DNA from: a virus
Virus genome (UHGV): UHGV-0198360
Reading direction: 5' to 3' (one strand)
Length of the DNA stretch: 37,260 nucleotides
The stretch's first letter is position 1. Every line of letters starts with the position of its first letter. The position numbers and the translations under genes were made by a program. Of this stretch, positions 6,396 to 26,146 are shown one piece after another. The notes under the pieces were generated by a model, which had not been told where the DNA came from, made no database searches, and was given only the letters and a program-made list of their open reading frames with translations.

Positions 6396-6559
6396 AGATT
6401 CTCCTGCATTATTCTGCGCACGTTGGCGCTACTGATCATTTGTCAGGATGTTACTGATTTACATACCTGGTTATGGTTGTTACTCAGCCCGTCAGTGGTG
6501 GGACACTGGCGTTTTCTGATTAGGAGGGATGGCTGATTACCTCTGGATAAGGAAGTTAT

Positions 6560-6775
6560 ATGGACGAAGTAAGTGCAAAAGTTCAATTTAATTCAAAAAA
6601 AGAAAGCCTGAAGGAAGTCGCTGATGAATTAAATGATATTAAAATGATCCTTCTTAGCGTAGCTTTGAAATTAGACAATGAGGGTCGCCAGCAAATCATT
6701 AAGGAGTTATCACAGATTGATTCCCCATCGATTCAGCAATGGGTTGGCAATCTCAAAGGACTGCATCAGTCTTAA
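6560..6775 (+). CDS. Hypothetical small protein (71 aa), opposite-strand moron gene
   Basis: ORF track; strong SD AAGGAAG 5 nt before ATG; sits in a visibly AT-rich island; opposite orientation to all flanking tail genes. Confidence 0.5.
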   Translation: MDEVSAKVQFNSKKESLKEVADELNDIKMILLSVALKLDNEGRQQIIKELSQIDSPSIQQWVGNLKGLHQS

Positions 6776-7082
6776 TTCCTAATTTTAAGGTATAAAAACC
6801 ATTCGCGGCCTGATTTGTGGCCGCTTCAATAATCTTCGTGACAACATTTTGAGCATGCCCTTTCGCCCGCTGATTGTACCCTTCCAGGGTAAGTTCTGGC
6901 GTTAAGTCTTCGCTGTACTGGATAGTAGCTACGGTTGCTTTGCCAATTTTCACCGACACGTTACTACCAATGCGCTGCGTAGATGACATGGCCAAATTTT
7001 CTCCGAAAGAAATTCTTACTCCATTTTCTTTCGGAAACCCTACTTTAAATTCAAGTGACTCAATTCGTTGTTCTAAAGTCAT
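6753..7082 (-). CDS. Hypothetical protein (109 aa) in AT-rich island between tape measure and tail tip genes
   Basis: ORF track; SD GGGAGA 5 nt before ATG at 7082; 3' end overlaps the convergent 71-aa gene by 23 bp. Confidence 0.5.
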   Translation of the reverse strand: MTLEQRIESLEFKVGFPKENGVRISFGENLAMSSTQRIGSNVSVKIGKATVATIQYSEDLTPELTLEGYNQRAKGHAQNVVTKIIEAATNQAANGFYTLKLGIKTDAVL

Positions 7083-7123
7083 AACAGTCTCCCGCCTTTC
7101 GGCTTAATGAATATTAATAATGC

Positions 7124-9598
7124 TTACACGCCAAGTAATCGCCTTGCCTGTCCTCTATTAGAGAAATCCTGAAGCAAATCCTTACGCGCCTGTTTTGCAC
7201 CATCATTAGCACCCTGTCGTGCAGCTTCCTGCATAGCCTGCTTCAGTGCGGCATCTCCGTTACCGGAAATAGAGAAATGCTGCTGAATAGTTTGCTGGAG
7301 CTGAGCACCACCACCGCCAACAGAAGAAACCGTGTCATCCACCATACGAACACCGAGGTTACCGTCAGCAGTACGCGTAAGGGGCATAATAGCTTCAGGA
7401 CCAGCTTCTCCCATGAGCCCCGCACCTTTGGCGAAAGCAAACATCGTCGGACTGTTCACGACGCCATTACGGAAACGACTAAGATCAGGCGAATCCATTA
7501 CACCACCCTTGGCGAATTTCAATTGAGATGCCGCACCTGTATAAGCTCCGGACGGTGTTGCACCGCCAGCGGATGCTGCGCCAGCCACTGAACTACCAAA
7601 CATCCCACCAAGTGAACCAAACCAACCGCTATCACCAGCAGATTTAAGCGTGTTGACCATAATTGCCCTGAGCAAGACTTTCTGCAGCTCATTCAACACA
7701 CTGTTCGCCCAACTTGCCCAGTCAGCTTTATTACCACTGAGGGCATCAGCCATGTTATCCACCAGGCCATCAAGGGTGTTACCGACTAAATCTGATACCT
7801 GAGTGTAATAATCGCTGGAAGTATCTACCCAGTTAGCCAGACCATTCTGAGCCCCTGCCAGCCAGTTTCCCTGTAACTCATCCAGTTGGTCATAATGAGA
7901 ACGGTATTTATCGAGTCGCTCAGCAAGCGCTTTGTCCAGTTCCTGGTTATAACGGTCATAATCCTCTTGGCTACGAATATCTCCGCTCTGATACCGCCGT
8001 TGCAAATCCTCTCGCTTCTCCAGAAATTCGCGTTCAATGCTGAGTTGCTCACGCATCCTTTCGCGGGCTTTATCACCGAGTCCTGCGCCAATGACATCTG
8101 CATCAAGAGAAGCCGCTGAATTCGCATTTTCACGCTGAAGGTTCGATACGTATTCAGCCAGTTTTAGATTTTCCTCGTTTGCCTTTTTTACGGAATTTAG
8201 GCGATCAACCTCTGTAGCCAGTTGTTCAAGGCGTTGCTTCTGTGTTTCATTAAGTCCATTTAGCTTTCCGTCAGCGATATCAAATTGTAGTTTTTGCTGT
8301 TCAGTAACTTCTGCGCTTTTCTTTCCAGTGGTGTCGATGAGAGCAATCTGACGGAGGTAACTTGTCTCCATTGATTTAAAAGCTGATTCAATTTTTTTTG
8401 CTGAAGTATCAGTTTTTAATTTCCCGTTTGATTCTCCTGCGTCAAGACCATAATCTGTTTTAGATGAAGAATAATTACCTATGGTTGCTGGATATAGAGG
8501 TAGGTTATTTCCTGCTTTAAGGATTGCTCGGCGGCGTTCAAGCTCTGATCGTTCAGCCCGTTTCCTTTCCACATCCATTCCTAATCTGTTGAAATCTGCA
8601 AGAAAACCTTCGTCATTTAAATCTGCATCAAGGTTTCTTATGCGACGATCAATTTCCTCTATAGATGCATTCTCCCCTACTGCCTGTCCCCCTTTGTAAA
8701 GATCGATGAGTTTTCCTGCTTCCGCTCCAACCTTAACAAGCCAGGTAGCGAGGTCGACCACGCCACTAACAAGGTTGGTGATACCTTTGATAACTTCATG
8801 GTCTTTAAATACATCACCCATGTCGCTAATTGATTTCTGCAGGTTAGAAAGGTCAACCTTTGCTAATCCAGCTGATAATTCAATCTTAACCCCTTTAACT
8901 TGGTTTTCCATATCCTCAAAGATTGAATTAACTTTTACGAGACTTTCTATATCGGTATCATCTGGTGCTACGCCAAATTCTTTCGCAGCCTTAATATATT
9001 TTTGTAATTTATCACCGCCCTGATCAAGCAAAGGAAGCAACTTAGAGAGATCGTTACCCAAGCTTTCAAGAATAGTAGTCTTTTCAGCGTTTGTTTTAAT
9101 CTTGCTTAGCGCATCACTTATGGCTAAAAGTTGCTTATCCGGCGATTCACTCGATAATTTTTTAGCTGATAAACCGAGTGCATCCAATGCATCTACTGCC
9201 TCACCTGATTTATTCAGTACCGAGTCACCAATTTTATCTCCGATATCTTTAAAAATATCAGCCATTTGATCGCCTGAAACACCTGCTTTTTCTGCAGCAT
9301 ACTGCCAAGCAAGTAATGATTGAGTAGACATGTTGAGCGACTTAGCCCAACGGTCAGACTCAGTAATTTGCCTGGAGGTGTTTTTTAACAGGTTGTATCC
9401 AGCCACACCTACGCCAATAGCAGCGGCGCTTGCTGCAGTTGCTGCCCCTGTGAATGCAACAGCTACAGATTTTGCATCCTCTTGAACCTGTTTTCGCCAT
9501 TTCTGCGATGCCCTTTCAGCCTGGCTTAGGCCGCCAACAAAGCCGCCAACTTTGGCAATTAAGTCTATCGTTAATGTACCTAATGATTTACTTGCCAC
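7124..9598 (-). CDS. Tail tape measure protein (824 aa)
   Basis: Long ORF, predicted coiled-coil-rich N-terminal and Gly/Ala-rich C-terminal region; GTG start at 9598 preceded by SD GGAGGA; position after G/GT chaperone. Confidence 0.85.
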   Translation of the reverse strand: MASKSLGTLTIDLIAKVGGFVGGLSQAERASQKWRKQVQEDAKSVAVAFTGAATAASAAAIGVGVAGYNLLKNTSRQITESDRWAKSLNMSTQSLLAWQYAAEKAGVSGDQMADIFKDIGDKIGDSVLNKSGEAVDALDALGLSAKKLSSESPDKQLLAISDALSKIKTNAEKTTILESLGNDLSKLLPLLDQGGDKLQKYIKAAKEFGVAPDDTDIESLVKVNSIFEDMENQVKGVKIELSAGLAKVDLSNLQKSISDMGDVFKDHEVIKGITNLVSGVVDLATWLVKVGAEAGKLIDLYKGGQAVGENASIEEIDRRIRNLDADLNDEGFLADFNRLGMDVERKRAERSELERRRAILKAGNNLPLYPATIGNYSSSKTDYGLDAGESNGKLKTDTSAKKIESAFKSMETSYLRQIALIDTTGKKSAEVTEQQKLQFDIADGKLNGLNETQKQRLEQLATEVDRLNSVKKANEENLKLAEYVSNLQRENANSAASLDADVIGAGLGDKARERMREQLSIEREFLEKREDLQRRYQSGDIRSQEDYDRYNQELDKALAERLDKYRSHYDQLDELQGNWLAGAQNGLANWVDTSSDYYTQVSDLVGNTLDGLVDNMADALSGNKADWASWANSVLNELQKVLLRAIMVNTLKSAGDSGWFGSLGGMFGSSVAGAASAGGATPSGAYTGAASQLKFAKGGVMDSPDLSRFRNGVVNSPTMFAFAKGAGLMGEAGPEAIMPLTRTADGNLGVRMVDDTVSSVGGGGAQLQQTIQQHFSISGNGDAALKQAMQEAARQGANDGAKQARKDLLQDFSNRGQARRLLGV

Positions 9599-9608
9599 GC
9601 TGTCCTCC

Positions 9609-9635
9609 AGGTAAAAAAAAGCCCCGCAAAGCGAG
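9609..9635 (-). terminator. Candidate intrinsic terminator downstream of the zinc-ribbon moron gene
   Basis: Hairpin GCCTCGC-TTT-GCGGGGC followed by T8 on the minus strand (plus strand aaaaaaaagccccgcaaagcgaggc). Confidence 0.5.
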
Positions 9636-9672
9636 GCATTTTAATGCTTATTAAATAGTGTAAATATTACTT

Positions 9673-10392
9673 TTATTTTTTCTTTGCTTGCTCTGGATAA
9701 TCTGAAACATCAAAATCGAACCCCTGTTCGCCAGATTGATAAAATGTCACTCCAATAGTGATTTTTTTATTGCTCTTGATATATTTTTCGAAAGACTGTG
9801 GGTTATCAAGAAAAATCATATCTGATCTTCCAGACGCCTCACTACTTGCAGTCCAGATTTTTACCTTTCCGTTATCGCCCTTCGTTCTTATTGAGCAATC
9901 TGAGTAACCACATACAATCTGACCTTTAGATATCACGACATAGGCATCAGTACCTTGTTTTCTTTTGCGGAAAACCAAGTTGAGTACAGAACCACCATCA
10001 ACGTTGTATGGGAATGGGAAATTAACATGGTTTTTCGATGTATTATAAAAAATCTCCCCAACCTCACCAGTAACGCTATCTTTCGTGGGTTGGTTATGCC
10101 AGTTAATAACTGTAACTGGTTCTTTTTTTACCTCTACTTCTTTTACGACATCATTTTTCAACTTATCAGTGCTTACCTGAGTGCTACCCACTGTTTGGCT
10201 AGGTGCTTCTTTTTTATTGCTTACTTTGCCAATAAACAAAAGAAGGATAAGAACCCCTACAAAAATAAAAAACACCATCATACATCCCGATGGGCCTTTG
10301 TTTTTTTTTGCTATGGGAGCTCCGCACTTTGGACATGATGCGGCCTTATCAGATACCTGTTCTCCACACTCTTTGCATTTAATTAAAGCCAT
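9673..10392 (-). CDS. Zinc-ribbon membrane protein (239 aa), moron between tail chaperone and tape measure
   Basis: N-terminal CxxC...CxxC (CKECGEQVSDKAASCPKCG), then a hydrophobic helix (MMVFFIFVGVLILLLFIG), then a Lys-rich soluble domain; strong SD AAGGAGATCAAGGA; AT-rich relative to flanks. Confidence 0.6.
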   Translation of the reverse strand: MALIKCKECGEQVSDKAASCPKCGAPIAKKNKGPSGCMMVFFIFVGVLILLLFIGKVSNKKEAPSQTVGSTQVSTDKLKNDVVKEVEVKKEPVTVINWHNQPTKDSVTGEVGEIFYNTSKNHVNFPFPYNVDGGSVLNLVFRKRKQGTDAYVVISKGQIVCGYSDCSIRTKGDNGKVKIWTASSEASGRSDMIFLDNPQSFEKYIKSNKKITIGVTFYQSGEQGFDFDVSDYPEQAKKK

Positions 10393-10454
10393 TCCTTGAT
10401 CTCCTTGTTTTTAGATAGGGTAGCAAGGAAAGCGTTTCTAATAAATTCTACTTT

Positions 10455-11143
10455 TCAATTCCACGTCCTCATCGCTTCCTGCAGGCTGATTGGTTCGTTA
10501 GCGGCGACGCGCTCTACCGCTGCTATGTGAGGGGCGAAATCAGTAATGCTGAATGCCGGTGTGTTTGAACCGCGATTAACATTAGCCAGCACAGAAGAAA
10601 TCAACGCTGCTCCCCATTCCGTCCGCATCATAGGGTTCAGGTTTCCGTATTTTTGACGATACTGAACCCACTGCTGAAACTCAAGAAAGCTAAGGCGTTC
10701 CTGCGCTTCTGAAATGGTACGTCCACCAATCCCGTTAAGGACTAGTTCGCACCAGATTTCGTCTTCTGCGCTGAGTCCGTCTTTCCCAGATCGTTAACTT
10801 CCTGAATAGCCACCAGCAAAGCCACTGTAAGATTGCCATCCAGTGCGCCACGTTCCGGATCAGCCTCGCCGGTCACATCAGCAACGGTAAACACCTGATG
10901 CCCGTCTTCATCACAGATTGATGCTGCAATACGACCAGCAACGCCATCAATCTTGCCAAGACCGGCGAGAACATCAGACGTGGCAGTGTGATAACCCAGA
11001 GGGCGAACATAAGTTATGGCAATATGTTCTTCCCCGTCAGCACCTTTCCATTTAATTTCTTTCTCAACAGGACGACCAGTAAAAGCACCTGTTTTTTTCA
11101 GCGTATCAAGAGTCAGTTTCATGTAGTTTTCCGGTATAAACAT
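10455..11143 (-). CDS. Tail assembly chaperone GT fusion, made by programmed -1 frameshift at GGGAAAG (10781-10787)
   Basis: After the slippery site the -1 frame stays open for about 110 codons (DGLSAEDEIWCELVLNGIGGRTISEAQERL...RTWN*), ending at TGA 10455-10457; same arrangement as lambda G/GT. Confidence 0.6.
10742..11143 (-). CDS. Tail assembly chaperone (gpG-like)
   Basis: ORF between major tail and tape measure genes; contains slippery heptamer G_GGA_AAG near its 3' end; start taken at the first ATG (track start 11146 is a TTG). Confidence 0.7.
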   Translation of the reverse strand: MFIPENYMKLTLDTLKKTGAFTGRPVEKEIKWKGADGEEHIAITYVRPLGYHTATSDVLAGLGKIDGVAGRIAASICDEDGHQVFTVADVTGEADPERGALDGNLTVALLVAIQEVNDLGKTDSAQKTKSGAN

Positions 11144-11174
11144 CAATGAGGCGGGGTATGATCCCCGCGTTTAA

Positions 11175-11666
11175 TTAACTGCCTGGCTGTTCTTTAGGAA
11201 TCCATGCCCCCTGGCCAGAGCGCTGGATGGTAGCAGACGTCTGCACGACGGTATTACCCTGGAAGTCAAACGGGAAGTCGGAAACATAACCTTTGAACAC
11301 GTACCAGGTACGATCTGAAGGTAGAATCAGTCCATCAACAGCATCAGGGGAACTCCCCGTTGTTGGTTTAGACTCGCCATCGGACCATCCGATCGCAAAT
11401 GTCACATCACTCTGATCATTTGATTCAGCCATATTACTGAGCATCAGATGGCTGGCATTCTGTGGATCAGCGTTAAGCGTGGCCGTCGCCTGCCCCGGTG
11501 TACGCAGACCCTTTTTATATTTTCGGGTGTTGCGTTCACTGAGGCACGTATCATCAATCTGATCTGCAGGGCTGCCGCCTGGTGAAAATGCCGTAATACA
11601 TTCGATTTCGCTCACGACACCATTCGCGAGCACAAAAAGTTGAGTGCCTTGAGTCACTACTGACAT
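11175..11666 (-). CDS. Major tail (tube) protein (163 aa)
   Basis: ORF track ORF trimmed to the ATG with SD GGAGA ([13 protein letters not shown]...); the longer track ORF would overlap the upstream gene and a terminator hairpin. Confidence 0.7.
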
Positions 11667-11682
11667 AGTCATCTCCGGATAT

Positions 11683-11704
11683 AAAAAAACCGGCTTATAG
11701 CCGG
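11683..11704 (-). terminator. Candidate intrinsic terminator/attenuator upstream of major tail gene
   Basis: Minus strand hairpin CCGGCTATAAGCCGG followed by T7. Confidence 0.5.
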
Positions 11705-11724
11705 TGTGATGTGAGTGGTTTAAG

Positions 11725-12090
11725 CTATCGGTTGACCAGCCAGTCAACGTCAAAGGAATATCGGTATTTGAGGGTTGCAGAGTCTCTGCCCTGTGCATCC
11801 CAGCGGGTAATGTAAGCTTTACGCTGAATGACATCGCGCAATGCTCTCGCCACAGCAAGAGCATCTTCATCGGTGTCGCCATACACATCCACCTGAATGG
11901 AATAACGGTCGATGTCAGGGTTCTGACTCAGGTAATTTTCAGGTTCACCGCCCACGTTCTGCCAGACCGCGTAGGGATACACAAGGTCATCATCATGCAT
12001 GCCAAACGGATAAAGCCTGACCGGGTTGGCACCAAGTAGCTCTTTTACTTTCGGGTCTGTCGAACAGACGGAAAAAACTGGAGCAATCAT
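11725..12090 (-). CDS. Tail completion / tail terminator-like protein (121 aa)
   Basis: ORF track; ATGA overlap with upstream gp10-like gene; position between head-tail joining genes and major tail gene. Confidence 0.55.
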
Positions 12091-15680: not shown

Positions 15681-16985
15681 CTAAGCGGCCTGTTTCAGCG
15701 GAGATTGTTCAAAGGAAATATCGGGGAATACGTGGTTATGCAGCTCTCGCAGGGCCAGCGCCTGAACAGCAGGGTTGCTGCTTTCGAGATTTTTCAGTTG
15801 CGTCAGGTTGAGCTGAACGGTGTAAATATCGCCCCCTTCAATTGGCGGCATGTTCTCAAGACGACGAACGTCATTACGGGACATCCAGCCATTCTGAAGC
15901 GCGCTGGTATAGTATGCCGCGCGACCGGCACTATCTGCTCGCAGTAGACCTTCAACAGAGAATTCTGCAAACACTTCGTCATCGCTGTCGAGTAAGCACC
16001 GGCCAATTTCCTGCTCAATATTCACCAGCAGCGGTCGAAGAGTATGAGTCAGGAACTGCAGGTTCATACCCTCAAGGCTGGATGCCCAGCTGCTTTGTTT
16101 CGTGGTGTGGCCAACCATGAAAGGAGGTACACGAAACCAGCGGCAGATCTCCTCAATGCTAAATGCGCGGCTTTCGAGCATCTGAGCATCTTCCGGATTC
16201 ATGGTAACGCCCTGATACTTCAATCCGCCTTCAAGTACCATGATTTTCCCGGCGTTTTTTGAACCGGTAAATGCAGCCATGTAGCTCCGAAGTCTTTCAC
16301 GTTGTTCGTCACTCAGCGCATTATCAGCGGAGAGAAAACCTGAACTCTGAAGCCCCTGTTCAAATATCTTCGCAGCAGACTCCTCAACCGCCATTGCTGA
16401 ACCGATCACATCCCGTCCGGTTTTCATCGGCATCATGCCGCAAACACCGTCCAGACCGAACCCGCGAATGTGCATGATGTTTTTGACGGAAATGACGCGC
16501 TCGCTACCGTTTTCAGTGTATTTGTATTCCAGCGCCCCGGAAGTGAGACGTTTAACCACCATGTTCTGCGGCAGCAAAGGTACCAGCGAAACCAGGCGAT
16601 TTGCGATGAATTTCTTCTCAATGAAGGCGTTCCCGCGTAGGCAGATACTGGCGACCACCATCAACATAAAGCGTGATGGCGTCATTTCTGAATTGGGACG
16701 GCGGCACAGTATCGAATAGGCCGGGTGATCGGTTGCTGCTTTTCGTGAACCGTCAGGCTGTCGAATGTATATTTTCAGCGGAAGGGTTGAAATAGACTCG
16801 CTTAACAGCCTTACGCATGCCCACACAGCCGATAGTTGGATGGCTTTATCGGCCGTTACCACCTTTCCGCTGCTGCTGGTACCAAACCATTCCTCCCAGA
16901 ACGTGCCGGTAGTGAGGCTGATAGGCACACCGAGCCAGTTAAGCAGAGCGCTTTTCACCCTGCCTGGCTGTTTGTTTTTTTTCAT
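15681..16985 (-). CDS. Portal protein, HK97 family (434 aa)
   Basis: ORF track; size and position immediately after terminase large subunit with ATGA overlap. Confidence 0.8.
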   Translation of the reverse strand: MKKNKQPGRVKSALLNWLGVPISLTTGTFWEEWFGTSSSGKVVTADKAIQLSAVWACVRLLSESISTLPLKIYIRQPDGSRKAATDHPAYSILCRRPNSEMTPSRFMLMVVASICLRGNAFIEKKFIANRLVSLVPLLPQNMVVKRLTSGALEYKYTENGSERVISVKNIMHIRGFGLDGVCGMMPMKTGRDVIGSAMAVEESAAKIFEQGLQSSGFLSADNALSDEQRERLRSYMAAFTGSKNAGKIMVLEGGLKYQGVTMNPEDAQMLESRAFSIEEICRWFRVPPFMVGHTTKQSSWASSLEGMNLQFLTHTLRPLLVNIEQEIGRCLLDSDDEVFAEFSVEGLLRADSAGRAAYYTSALQNGWMSRNDVRRLENMPPIEGGDIYTVQLNLTQLKNLESSNPAVQALALRELHNHVFPDISFEQSPLKQAA

Positions 16986-24339: not shown

Positions 24340-25170
24340 TTACGCGATATTTATCACATCTTCACTTTTAGTCACCCGGTTCAGTTGAGAACTTGAATAA
24401 CTCTCCTCCTGGAAACATTTGGTCACCAAGATTTCATAGAATGGTTTCCAGCTATAACGCCACGTCCGGTCTGGCAGACTGGGCAACTCGGAAAAAACAC
24501 CGCGATAGGCAACCGATGATTTTGGCCTGCTGTATCCCCGACCTTCACAGCGCTTACATTCTTTGTAAACCGGTACGCCCTGCAGTTCTGTCGCTTTACG
24601 GTCAATAGTCTTACCTGTGCCGCCGCACTGGCATCGCTTACTTAACTTTCCGGTGCCATGGCAGCGGGAACATAACGTATGATCAGTGTCAGTTACATCG
24701 CGCTTAACCTCAAAGTCAGATGGTGACTGTCTCAGGTCTTTTGCCCATTGTGGCAATCGCATTGTGTAATGGCTTTTAGTCACGGTTTTAGTGGTTGTAA
24801 GCAACCCTTTACCACTACATTTTGGGCATGCCACACAATCAGCTGCTGATGAGGAATAATCGTTATAGGCAAACCGGGCAAGGATACGCATGCAGAGGGG
24901 AAACTTTTTCCCTGATGCTTTACGAATAGCCATGGGAGCATGCTCTTTCGCGTACTCCGTTAGCCAGGCAATTGACGCCTCCCTGTCCTGGCTGCTGATA
25001 CAAGCTTTACCCAGAAACATTGCCAGCCCGATGCCCGCATCAGCCTGAGTCATCCCCAGTGCCGCCATTACATCAGTCACAGTAAGTTGCTCACTTGCTG
25101 TCGCTCTGCTGGTATCTGAGATGTGCATGCCTTTAGGCGCAAAAAACTTTAAAACATTGTCCAGATTCAT
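24340..25170 (-). CDS. Late antiterminator Q-like protein with four CxxCxGxG zinc-finger repeats
   Basis: ORF trimmed to ATG at 25170 (SD GGAGA); repeats CPKCSGKG, CSRCHGTG, CQCGGTG, CKRCEGRG; position immediately upstream of late promoter/terminator and lysis genes. Confidence 0.6.
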   Translation of the reverse strand: MNLDNVLKFFAPKGMHISDTSRATASEQLTVTDVMAALGMTQADAGIGLAMFLGKACISSQDREASIAWLTEYAKEHAPMAIRKASGKKFPLCMRILARFAYNDYSSSAADCVACPKCSGKGLLTTTKTVTKSHYTMRLPQWAKDLRQSPSDFEVKRDVTDTDHTLCSRCHGTGKLSKRCQCGGTGKTIDRKATELQGVPVYKECKRCEGRGYSRPKSSVAYRGVFSELPSLPDRTWRYSWKPFYEILVTKCFQEESYSSSQLNRVTKSEDVINIA

Positions 25171-25186
25171 ACGGTCTCCATACTTC

Positions 25187-26146
25187 TTAAGCTGTCGCAA
25201 TTACGCCGATCGCCAGCGCCCGATCCATAAAACGCAGTAGCAGCTCAAGCTGCGTACCATGCTTTTGCTCGAATGCCGGTACATCGGCGTGTAACTCATC
25301 GTGGCACTCTCTGCACAGAGGGATCACGAAGAGGTCATGGGCTTTTGTTGCTGTACCACCCATACCGTGCCCTACGATATGGTGCGGATCATCTGCTGGC
25401 CGTCGGCAACACTCACAGGGTTGTGTTTTAACCCAGCGGGTGTACGTCTCATTTATCCAGCGGCGTCGCTTTGGCCTGAGCATGAAAGACTCTGGCGACT
25501 CTGGATCAACAGAGAGCGTGAGGATCTTCTTCGCCTTCTCCTGAACGAGTCTGGTTGCTGACGAGGAAGGCACTATGTCGCTTTCCCTCATGACAGAACG
25601 GATCTTCTCATCCGGAAGGCGCAGCCCTTTGTGCGCAACGCTTTCCGGAATAATATCAGCCAGGTCGTTTCTGACCATCCACCAGCACAGTTCCGGAAGC
25701 GTCAGGATATGCGACTCGGGAAAACCAGAATCACGCCGAATGACTTCCAGAATCCAGGATACCAGGTTTCCGGCCGCTATACCTGCAAGCTGTTCGGTAT
25801 GCTGCCCCGACAAAGTGTGATCGCAATGCCAGCACAGGCGAATACTTCCTGGTGGGTGCCGCATTGTTGTGAAGTTCTTGTCGTGCCACGATGAATGTGG
25901 CCACTGGCATTCAAACCGATTACTCAACCATTGCTCAAGGGAAGAAATCCCACCGGCACGCTGAATAACCCTCTCATTCTCGAAGACCTGACGCATTACC
26001 GGATCATCAGTCAGCGGCTGAATGGCTGCCGGAACAGCCCCGGTACTGAATGACGCCATTTCTTCTGGTTCAGGCTCGAGCAGAACGCGACCACGCATGA
26101 AGAGGTGCATCAGTTCCGCACCAGGACGGAACAACACAATCCCCAT
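25187..26146 (-). CDS. DUF968-like protein with C-terminal HNH-like Cys/His motif (start uncertain)
   Basis: ORF track (342 aa from GTG at 26215); C-terminal CECCRRPADDPHHIV...CRECHDELH; several in-frame Met candidates and none has a strong SD. Confidence 0.5.
   Translation of the reverse strand: MGIVLFRPGAELMHLFMRGRVLLEPEPEEMASFSTGAVPAAIQPLTDDPVMRQVFENERVIQRAGGISSLEQWLSNRFECQWPHSSWHDKNFTTMRHPPGSIRLCWHCDHTLSGQHTEQLAGIAAGNLVSWILEVIRRDSGFPESHILTLPELCWWMVRNDLADIIPESVAHKGLRLPDEKIRSVMRESDIVPSSSATRLVQEKAKKILTLSVDPESPESFMLRPKRRRWINETYTRWVKTQPCECCRRPADDPHHIVGHGMGGTATKAHDLFVIPLCRECHDELHADVPAFEQKHGTQLELLLRFMDRALAIGVIATA

Follow-up and report, generated by a model that had tools for sequence, protein, structure and literature searches.

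We analysed a 37,260-nt stretch of DNA (the window), the UHGV virus genome UHGV-0198360, with respect to a single gene of the lambdoid prophage that it carries. This gene, termed ZN, lies between the genes for the tail assembly chaperones and the gene for the tape measure protein (TMP). The late genes of the prophage are encoded on the minus strand in the order portal (15681-16985), ClpP-type protease, HK97-fold capsid, connector genes, major tail protein, G, T and TMP. For G the ATG at position 11122 is the likely true start, and the -1 frame entered at the slippery heptamer leads into the PF06223 T domain and ends at 10455. From the T stop codon to the GTG start of the TMP gene there are 856 nt, which hold one open reading frame (ORF), that of ZN with 239 amino acids (aa). 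A reading of the bare sequence that preceded this work (the original prediction) had described a gene of this length as a moron inserted between G/GT and TMP, equipped with its own strong Shine-Dalgarno (SD) sequence and its own terminator hairpin, at a place where the GT frameshift product is normally followed directly by TMP. These proposals were borne out in each point by the analyses described below. The coordinates of all features are collected in Table 1.

The hairpin downstream of ZN is the best-scoring of 10 terminator-like sites found between positions 7000 and 12000, where 4.2 ± 2.2 sites were expected from shuffled sequences. It is placed just 5' of the TMP gene's own SD sequence, and a terminator hairpin with a differing stem sequence was present at the same position in all ZN loci examined. 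An Rfam search gave no match anywhere in the window.

Table 1. Features of the ZN cassette and of other prophage genes, in positions of the window.
Feature	Position	Strand	Evidence
239-aa cargo coding sequence (ZN): zinc ribbon, transmembrane helix, linker, predicted periplasmic beta-domain	9673..10392	-	ORF, ATG start, homologues, dN/dS, AlphaFold2 model
SD sequence AAGGAG, 8 nt 5' of the ZN ATG	10401..10406	-	sequence reading
Left (upstream) cassette boundary: 62-nt spacer and T stop codon (10455-10457)	10393..10460	-	blastn break points
Intrinsic-terminator-like hairpin GCCTCGC-TTT-GCGGGGC (7-bp stem, 6 GC pairs, 3-nt loop) and T8	9613..9637	-	terminator scan
Right cassette boundary: TMP SD sequence GGAGG (9604-9608) and GTG start (9596-9598)	9596..9608	-	sequence, blastn
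N-terminal zinc ribbon of ZN, aa 1-30 (C6, C9, C20, C23), predicted cytoplasmic	10303..10392	-	PF13240, invariant Cys
Single predicted transmembrane helix of ZN, aa 36-56	10225..10287	-	Kyte-Doolittle, AlphaFold2
Lys/Glu/Thr-rich linker of ZN, aa 57-97, predicted disordered, fastest-evolving part	10102..10224	-	pLDDT, dN/dS
Beta-rich C-terminal domain of ZN, aa 98-239, predicted periplasmic, Cys pair C161/C166 near-invariant	9676..10101	-	
TMP gene, 824 aa	7124..9598	-	PF09718, phrog_2854
Tail assembly chaperone G	10742..11146	-	PF16459 (E 1.6e-32), phrog_1749
Lambda-type slippery heptamer G GGA AAG, -1 frameshift giving GT	10781..10787	-	sequence reading
T part of the GT frameshift product, C-terminal 58 aa as ORF	10455..10631	-	PF06223, phrog_5297
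Q-type antiterminator of the prophage	24340..25200	-	PF03589, E 2.3e-45

The slot between GT and TMP was surveyed with chaperone G, and not ZN, as the seed, in one-genome-per-species contigs (15 informative loci) and in IMG/VR (73 informative loci). In the former 6 slots are empty and 9 are occupied, once by full-length ZN, once by a 75-aa protein consisting of zinc ribbon and transmembrane (TM) helix only, four times by two-TM proteins of ~154 aa and three times by lipoproteins, two of them BamE-like. In IMG/VR 28 slots are empty with a junction of 0-21 nt and a further 28 carry unrelated cargo; the zinc-ribbon/TM/domain form was found 10 times, a secreted-domain form five times and an anchor-only form twice. 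ZN is absent or replaced in 56 of the 73 IMG/VR loci, some of which have a G that is 91-98% identical to the one in the window. The different cargo beside such chaperones includes a two-TM protein as well as secreted proteins with a length of 95, 125 or 166 aa, and the TMPs of relatives with replaced cargo are 75-91% identical to that of the window. Phage HK022, with a chaperone 76% identical at the DNA level, has a GT-TMP junction of ~20 nt and no ZN, and its gene numbering omits 15. A search seeded with ZN had given the impression that the gene is present in all close relatives; this was discarded, as the chaperone-seeded search found other cargo in equally close relatives.

Blastn comparison with relatives that carry other cargo defines the limits of the exchanged DNA. 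Homology ends at 10460/10461, with the T stop codon still 3-4 nt away, and is found again from a point between 9645 and 9597, at the terminator or at the TMP start codon. The exchangeable segment covers ~9598-10460, and the span proposed in the original prediction (9600-10454) matches it almost exactly. ZN is an accessory cassette, a moron made up of a 62-nt spacer with SD sequence, one gene and an intrinsic terminator, and is neither a part of the tail nor the assembly component conserved in all relatives that had been considered as the alternative.

The cargo in the slot consists mostly of envelope proteins, namely two-TM proteins, BamE-like and other lipoproteins, secreted proteins and a membrane protein on the opposite strand. 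An insert of ~420 nt with a GC content of 0.28-0.30 occupies the slot of L142, L144-146, L150 and L153. Among these loci L142 was examined; its insert codes for a multi-TM protein of 95 aa on the strand opposite to the tail operon and, given this orientation, must be an independent transcription unit with its own promoter. Mini-proteins composed of zinc ribbon and TM helix (58 or 75 aa) were found in the slot of at least 21 contigs (L026, L087-L109). They are 54-70% identical to ZN aa 1-58/67, are followed by a terminator and show no remnant of the periplasmic domain; these anchor-only forms appear to be maintained and not decaying. In one IMG/VR locus (L046, identical to L123; ~4140) a 1-nt deletion in the G4 run of the TM-coding region splits ZN; either this copy is a pseudogene or the deletion stems from a sequencing error. 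HK97/HK022-like tail modules have a rich hotspot at their GT/TMP junction, occupied mostly by envelope-protein genes, which should be useful for finding new exclusion functions.

Judged from sequence and model, ZN is predicted to be a bitopic, single-pass inner-membrane protein with N-in/C-out topology, in which a beta-rich periplasmic domain of 142 aa is carried on a flexible tether of ~40 aa. The Pfam model Zn_Ribbon_1 (PF13240) matches aa 5-27 with 29.4 bits, above the gathering cut-off of 25, and all four cysteines of the CxxC...CxxC motif are invariant among 56 homologues. The hydrophobic segment at aa 37-55 has a mean Kyte-Doolittle value of 3.05 (next best segment 0.85), and the N-terminal flank of the TM helix carries a net charge of +4. 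Both the zinc ribbon and the single TM helix had been correctly recognised beforehand. The alignment-based AlphaFold2 model, with a mean predicted local distance difference test score (pLDDT) of 84, shows a zinc-ribbon knuckle, a helix at aa 36-54, a disordered linker at aa 57-97 (pLDDT 47-58) and a beta-rich domain at aa 98-235 (pLDDT 90-97). The ratio of nonsynonymous to synonymous divergence (dN/dS) is 0.26-0.59 for the linker versus 0.05-0.20 for the domains, and residue identity between the homologues and the window protein is lowest, of five regions, in the linker, at 13%. A homopolymer A9 (10303-10311 on the coding strand, encoding AKKNKG) lies just before the TM helix and is a potential slippage site. 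Phase variation at this run was considered and dismissed, as nine As are present in 20 of 20 matching loci.

The placement of the C-terminal domain follows from variants of the cassette. In five related prophage contigs (L165, L181, L184, L192, L195) the slot holds two genes, the first for a small TM protein (73-90 aa) and the second for a 167-175-aa protein with a cleavable signal peptide. The mature part of the latter is 36% identical to ZN aa 97-238 (E 1e-27 and 1e-28 in the aligned L165 and L181). Because the same domain occurs there behind a signal peptide, we take the C-terminal domain of ZN to be periplasmic, and the near-invariant pair C161/C166 is consistent with an oxidising compartment. 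The two-gene cargo seems to serve the same function in a split or alternative form. Another occupant of the slot (166 aa, signal peptide) is a more distant homologue of the ZN domain (E 2e-5), and rare fusions within the family join it to TonB_C or SH3_3 (bacterial SH3). Lysine accounts for 30 of the 239 residues of ZN. The soluble domain of the original prediction is predicted to be periplasmic and not cytoplasmic.

The original prediction had not recognised the family, and our searches did not assign it either. No Pfam, NCBIfam or PADLOC model matches the C-terminal domain in ZN or in 38 diverse relatives, and a sequence profile search of the PDB with this domain yielded nothing significant. 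Its sole PHROG match is phrog_1848 (unknown function, E 1.8e-6), and its matches in BFVD are uncharacterised phage proteins only. Weak similarities to MotB, ZorB and FtsH_ext are confined to the TM helix and linker. The family of the C-terminal domain is undescribed; we found nothing in the literature on the family, its IalB-like domain, its modular variants or its association with TMP. A superinfection-exclusion lipoprotein of the Ltp/Llp type was also considered for ZN and rejected. The N-terminus is a zinc ribbon, the sole hydrophobic segment lies at aa 37-55 and the 'GPSGC' match to the lipobox pattern is artefactual; true lipoboxes are present in other cargo of the slot.

A database search yielded 282 ZN homologues. 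The closest copies are from Citrobacter: a protein of C. braakii is 99% identical to ZN, and in C. portucalensis one locus is 93-100% identical across the module. The prophage probably comes from this genus. No DNA match to the ZN gene was found in 5,426 complete E. coli genomes. A family profile search covering 1.84 billion representatives gave 38,678 matches at E≤1e-3, 6,178 at E≤1e-10 and 1,960 clusters at E≤1e-30; among the best 150 matches listed, most are full-length proteins of ~205-300 aa. Regarding the chromosomal homologues, no conserved neighbour or partner gene was found.

Full-length homologues are also located directly upstream of TMP in distant phages, where the identities of ZN and TMP to those of the window are 39/38, 34/27 and 30/28%, at loci with a GC content of 0.39-0.45. 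One distant homologue precedes a TMP of another Pfam family, TMP_3, and in two contigs with a GC content of 0.65 the homologue is placed after the tail-tube and chaperone genes. A different location was found in 23 Pseudomonas phage contigs; in the 18 of them in which a repressor gene was matched, cI is followed on the same strand, at a distance of 1.3-3 kb, by the homologue. The Pseudomonas D3-like phages with the homologue near cI (L001, L002, L053-L075; ~36% identity) include the isolates vB_PaeS-D14O and Marin, and their TMP is ~35% identical to that of the window. The neighbours comprise a STAND/AAA_16 ATPase upstream of the homologue in L053 (one contig examined), a BRCT-domain protein in Marin and a putative anti-CRISPR nearby in D14O; the region has the appearance of an accessory or defence island.

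Among the enterobacterial loci no gene of the module evolves faster than ZN, and TMP comes second. In four successively more distant loci the identity to the window is 99, 92, 71 and 50% for ZN, 99, 97, 75 and 63% for TMP and 100, 96, 94 and 85% for the tail tube. Compared with the 92%-identical copy, ZN shows a dN/dS of 0.16 at a synonymous divergence (dS) of 0.22, and the dS of its neighbours (TMP, tail-tube and p197 genes) is similar with 0.24-0.37. ZN is therefore under purifying selection and has its recent history in common with the neighbouring genes.

The original prediction had further described an AT-rich island, which held in part. The bin 9601-10400 has with 0.376 the lowest GC content of all 800-nt bins in the window (others 0.42-0.56), and the GC content at third codon positions (GC3) of ZN is 0.329 versus 0.41-0.60 in the upstream genes. 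However, GC3 is equally low in the 5' half of the TMP gene (0.315; 3' half 0.409) and in the small ORF after TMP (0.382), and the low-GC block covers roughly 6750-10400 and not the insert alone. Because synonymous divergence matches that of the neighbours, and because homologues in distant phages are AT-poor relative to their flanks, we do not regard the AT-richness as evidence of a recent arrival.

The ORF after TMP encodes 109 aa (6753-7082, minus strand; phrog_11851, unknown function) and separates TMP from the next tail gene, within a second AT-rich spot at 6401-7200 (GC 0.42, GC3 0.38). It is absent in many relatives and 68-91% identical in two IMG/VR contigs, and in the Enterobacter loci L007 and L008 a DUF6602 gene on the opposite strand takes its place; the site resembles a second slot for morons. 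In relatives with other cargo (L119, L132, L140) the 5' end of the TMP gene (first ~750 nt; window 8400-9598) is mosaic, with 67-68% identity to the window versus 73-90% for the 3' part, and cargo and TMP 5' end may at times be exchanged together. Regarding the major tail gene, the start of the listed 237-aa ORF (11175-11888) is probably at 11666, since the homologues have 163 aa. GC-rich hairpins with T runs are located before this gene (11689-11705, minus strand) and between it and G (11151-11168), mirroring 'putative terminators' annotated at the equivalent positions of HK97.

As to function, the account we favour, with a confidence that falls somewhat short of even, is that the ZN cassette is a moron in the slot of HK97 gene 15 and acts, by analogy with the product of that gene, as an envelope-level block to the DNA entry of rival phages, i.e. 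in superinfection exclusion. This suggestion is drawn from the proven function of gp15 in the slot, the prevalence of envelope proteins among the cargo, the recurrent linkage to TMP and the placement next to cI in Pseudomonas phages. ZN would reside in the inner membrane of the lysogen and would probably also be made late in infection from Q-antiterminated transcripts that cross the cassette; read-through of the cargo terminator into the TMP gene by Q is expected from lambdoid biology. Interference would occur as the TMP or tail tip of an incoming siphophage builds the DNA conduit across periplasm and inner membrane, with ZN either binding a phage component or occupying a host envelope factor that the phage needs. 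The outcome would be superinfection exclusion with the outer-membrane receptor retained. All three elements of this account, namely that ZN is expressed in the lysogen, that it excludes phages and what it targets, are inferred. A more far-reaching version has a modest chance at best. According to it, zinc-ribbon/TM/IalB-like proteins would form a large envelope family that siphophages have repeatedly recruited as TMP-directed blockers of DNA entry, the inhibitor gene would be retained next to TMP, on its upstream side, in unrelated tail modules and even with a TMP of a different Pfam family, inhibitor and target would travel and diversify as one cassette, the domain would be modular in its tethered and secreted forms, and the mini-proteins of 58 or 75 aa would represent a second, membrane-embedded effector of gp15 size. 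Such an inhibitor-target cassette can be likened to llp of T5, which travels with its receptor-binding gene.

Several observations weigh against an exclusion function. A sigma-70 consensus scan of the minus strand upstream of ZN found no promoter. In a position weight matrix scan of the regions upstream of 17 homologous genes the best candidates were equalled by 5-90% of shuffled sequences, and no positionally conserved sigma-70 promoter was present among these 17 regions. As no upstream promoter rises above shuffled sequences, the protein is perhaps made only with the late operon. ZN has no detectable homology to gp15/YebO, SieA or Ltp, and a search of the PADLOC-DB 2.0 defence models gave as sole match ZorB over TM helix and linker, which is not significant (E 0.035). 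The family is mainly chromosomal, occurring in variable islands and also in housekeeping-gene surroundings, from which it follows that its ancestral role was not phage exclusion. The coupling of ZN and TMP is loose, with identical ZN proteins found beside TMPs that are only 86% identical. The GT/TMP junction, finally, may simply be a permissive insertion site, and its cargo is not exclusively of the envelope type: the slot of L139 holds 1.4 kb encoding a protein with a DnaQ-like exonuclease motif (247 aa, C-terminal TM helix) and a 151-aa TM protein.

A mainly chromosomal family with ~1,960 clusters at E≤1e-30, found in non-phage and even housekeeping contexts and without a conserved partner gene, would also suit a factor for lysogenic conversion or host fitness, a serious competitor of the favoured account which we nevertheless consider doubtful. 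The periplasmic domain would then alter the envelope, in stress tolerance, adhesion, serum or colicin resistance or in cell-wall/Tol-Pal processes, in the manner of Lom, Bor or the IalB-domain proteins, of which RgsG is located in the periplasm and has been connected with Tol-Pal and polar growth (PMC7327166). Such a role leaves unexplained that ZN is kept immediately upstream of TMP in very different phage lineages and that the proven occupant of the slot is an exclusion protein; moreover, the likeness to IalB exists at fold level only, at 10-13% identity and with no Pfam IalB match. It is unlikely, though likewise to be taken seriously, that ZN serves purely in the late lytic cycle, transcribed with the tail operon only and either hiding an entry factor on the cell as it dies and on the debris, so that progeny keep their DNA, or tuning late envelope events. 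ZN does lie inside the late operon in the same orientation, no promoter of its own was detected and the Q antiterminator of the prophage should carry late transcription through the hairpin. Yet the terminator that isolates ZN from TMP is kept in all ZN loci examined and would be pointless for a purely late gene, the Pseudomonas homologue stands beside cI on the repressor strand outside the late operon, and one cargo of the slot, being on the opposite strand, must have its own promoter.

The two remaining explanations fare worse. An abortive-infection or otherwise toxic membrane effector, which the original prediction had named as one option and which would respond to infection with membrane damage and cell death before progeny is made, is very unlikely. 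Small prophage membrane proteins can act in this way, and there are weak matches to ZorB/MotB in PADLOC over the TM region (E 0.035) and to MotB in the PDB profile search (E 0.1). These are not significant, however, and involve TM helix and linker only. ZN has only one TM helix and lacks any domain of the pore-forming, nuclease or NTPase type, its conserved, effector-like part is predicted to be periplasmic and exists also as a secreted protein, and the genes of the family stand alone, with no partner or antitoxin and in some cases among housekeeping genes. That ZN is a component of tail assembly or DNA delivery, a conserved partner of TMP encoded beside it, is the least credible of all and can nearly be dismissed. 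Adjacency to TMP holds from 99% to ~30% identity, the divergence of ZN broadly tracks that of TMP and low GC3 is common to ZN and the TMP 5' half. Against this, ZN is missing from HK022 and from the 28 related contigs with an empty slot and is exchanged for unrelated genes beside closely similar G and TMP, one contig carries a frameshifted copy, and in Pseudomonas phages the gene lies in the immunity region. Tails, furthermore, assemble in the cytoplasm, whereas the bulk of ZN is predicted to be membrane-anchored and periplasmic.

To our knowledge very few proteins that keep phage DNA from passing the inner membrane have been described, and the mechanism has been solved for none of them. If ZN is an entry blocker, its well-folded periplasmic domain would be structurally more tractable than the 62-aa gp15, natural variants for dissection exist in the tethered, secreted and anchor-only forms, the family offers thousands of sequences, and the linkage to TMP could be used for mapping inhibitor-target specificity. 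If it is instead a host-fitness factor, a family of ~2,000 clusters to which no function is attached is put on the map, and the weak similarity to IalB would become a lead for both families.

Among known systems HK97 gene 15, annotated as 'moron product', is the closest in layout. It lies between GT and TMP and is followed by an annotated terminator and then by the TMP gene, and the term moron was first applied to this element (PMC3594210). The prophage expresses its product, gp15, which becomes inserted into the inner membrane and prevents the genomes of HK97 and HK75 from entering, with no effect on receptors (PMC3594210). HK97 hybrids with the tail tube and TMP genes of HK022 escape gp15, and changes in TMP also overcome Ltp of phage TP-J34 (PMC10883804). 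The ZN cassette shares with gene 15 the slot and the arrangement of short spacer, one gene, terminator and TMP start. Both products are predicted single-pass inner-membrane proteins, and both have mostly chromosomal homologues (PMC3594210 for gp15), the gp15/YebO and ZN families being alike bacterial envelope proteins borrowed by phages. The proteins themselves differ: gp15 has 62 aa with an N-terminal TM helix, matches PF13974 YebO (E 1.2e-8) and lacks a zinc ribbon and a periplasmic domain, whereas ZN has 239 aa with its conserved bulk predicted in the periplasm, gives no match to PF13974 at E≤1 and has no architecture in common with gp15. Exclusion is demonstrated for gp15 and is proposed for ZN by analogy.

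SieA of P22, Ltp of TP-J34 and Sie2009 of Tuc2009 are likewise prophage-encoded envelope proteins that act after adsorption. The specificity of SieA maps to gp16/gp20 (PMC3952083) and that of Ltp to TMP (PMC10883804), and like Ltp, ZN would be anchored in the membrane and display a folded domain outside the cytoplasm. ZN differs from SieA, with its three TM segments, and from Ltp, a lipoprotein from a Gram-positive host; no homology of ZN to any of the three was detected. Their genes are located in the lysogeny region and ZN in the tail operon, though the Pseudomonas homologues of ZN are found in the lysogeny region too. Tab, Tai and phage-FimU, taken from the literature as possible relatives, were rejected: their genes occupy other genomic positions, the systems are cytoplasmic or act on pili, and there is no similarity to ZN.

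Regarding the individual domains, the closest solved fold to the C-terminal domain is IalB (COG5342; PDB 3dtd), a weak resemblance at 10-13% identity. Pfam IalB is not among the 18 families listed for ZN at E≤1 and gave no match in 38 diverse family members. IalB is similar in its inner-membrane/periplasmic association and differs in having a signal peptide instead of the zinc ribbon and TM anchor; its own mechanism is unknown. The N-terminal 30 residues of ZN are a bona fide member of the PF13240/PF13248/DZR anchors, and the combination of zinc ribbon, TM helix and variable extracytoplasmic domain is also seen in phrog_14275, phrog_38187 and phrog_6586 (unknown function). These are domain-level labels without a function, whereas the ZN family is defined by its C-terminal domain. 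A membrane-protein moron at the GT/TMP junction is a known kind of element, and we found no description of the cargo family represented by ZN.

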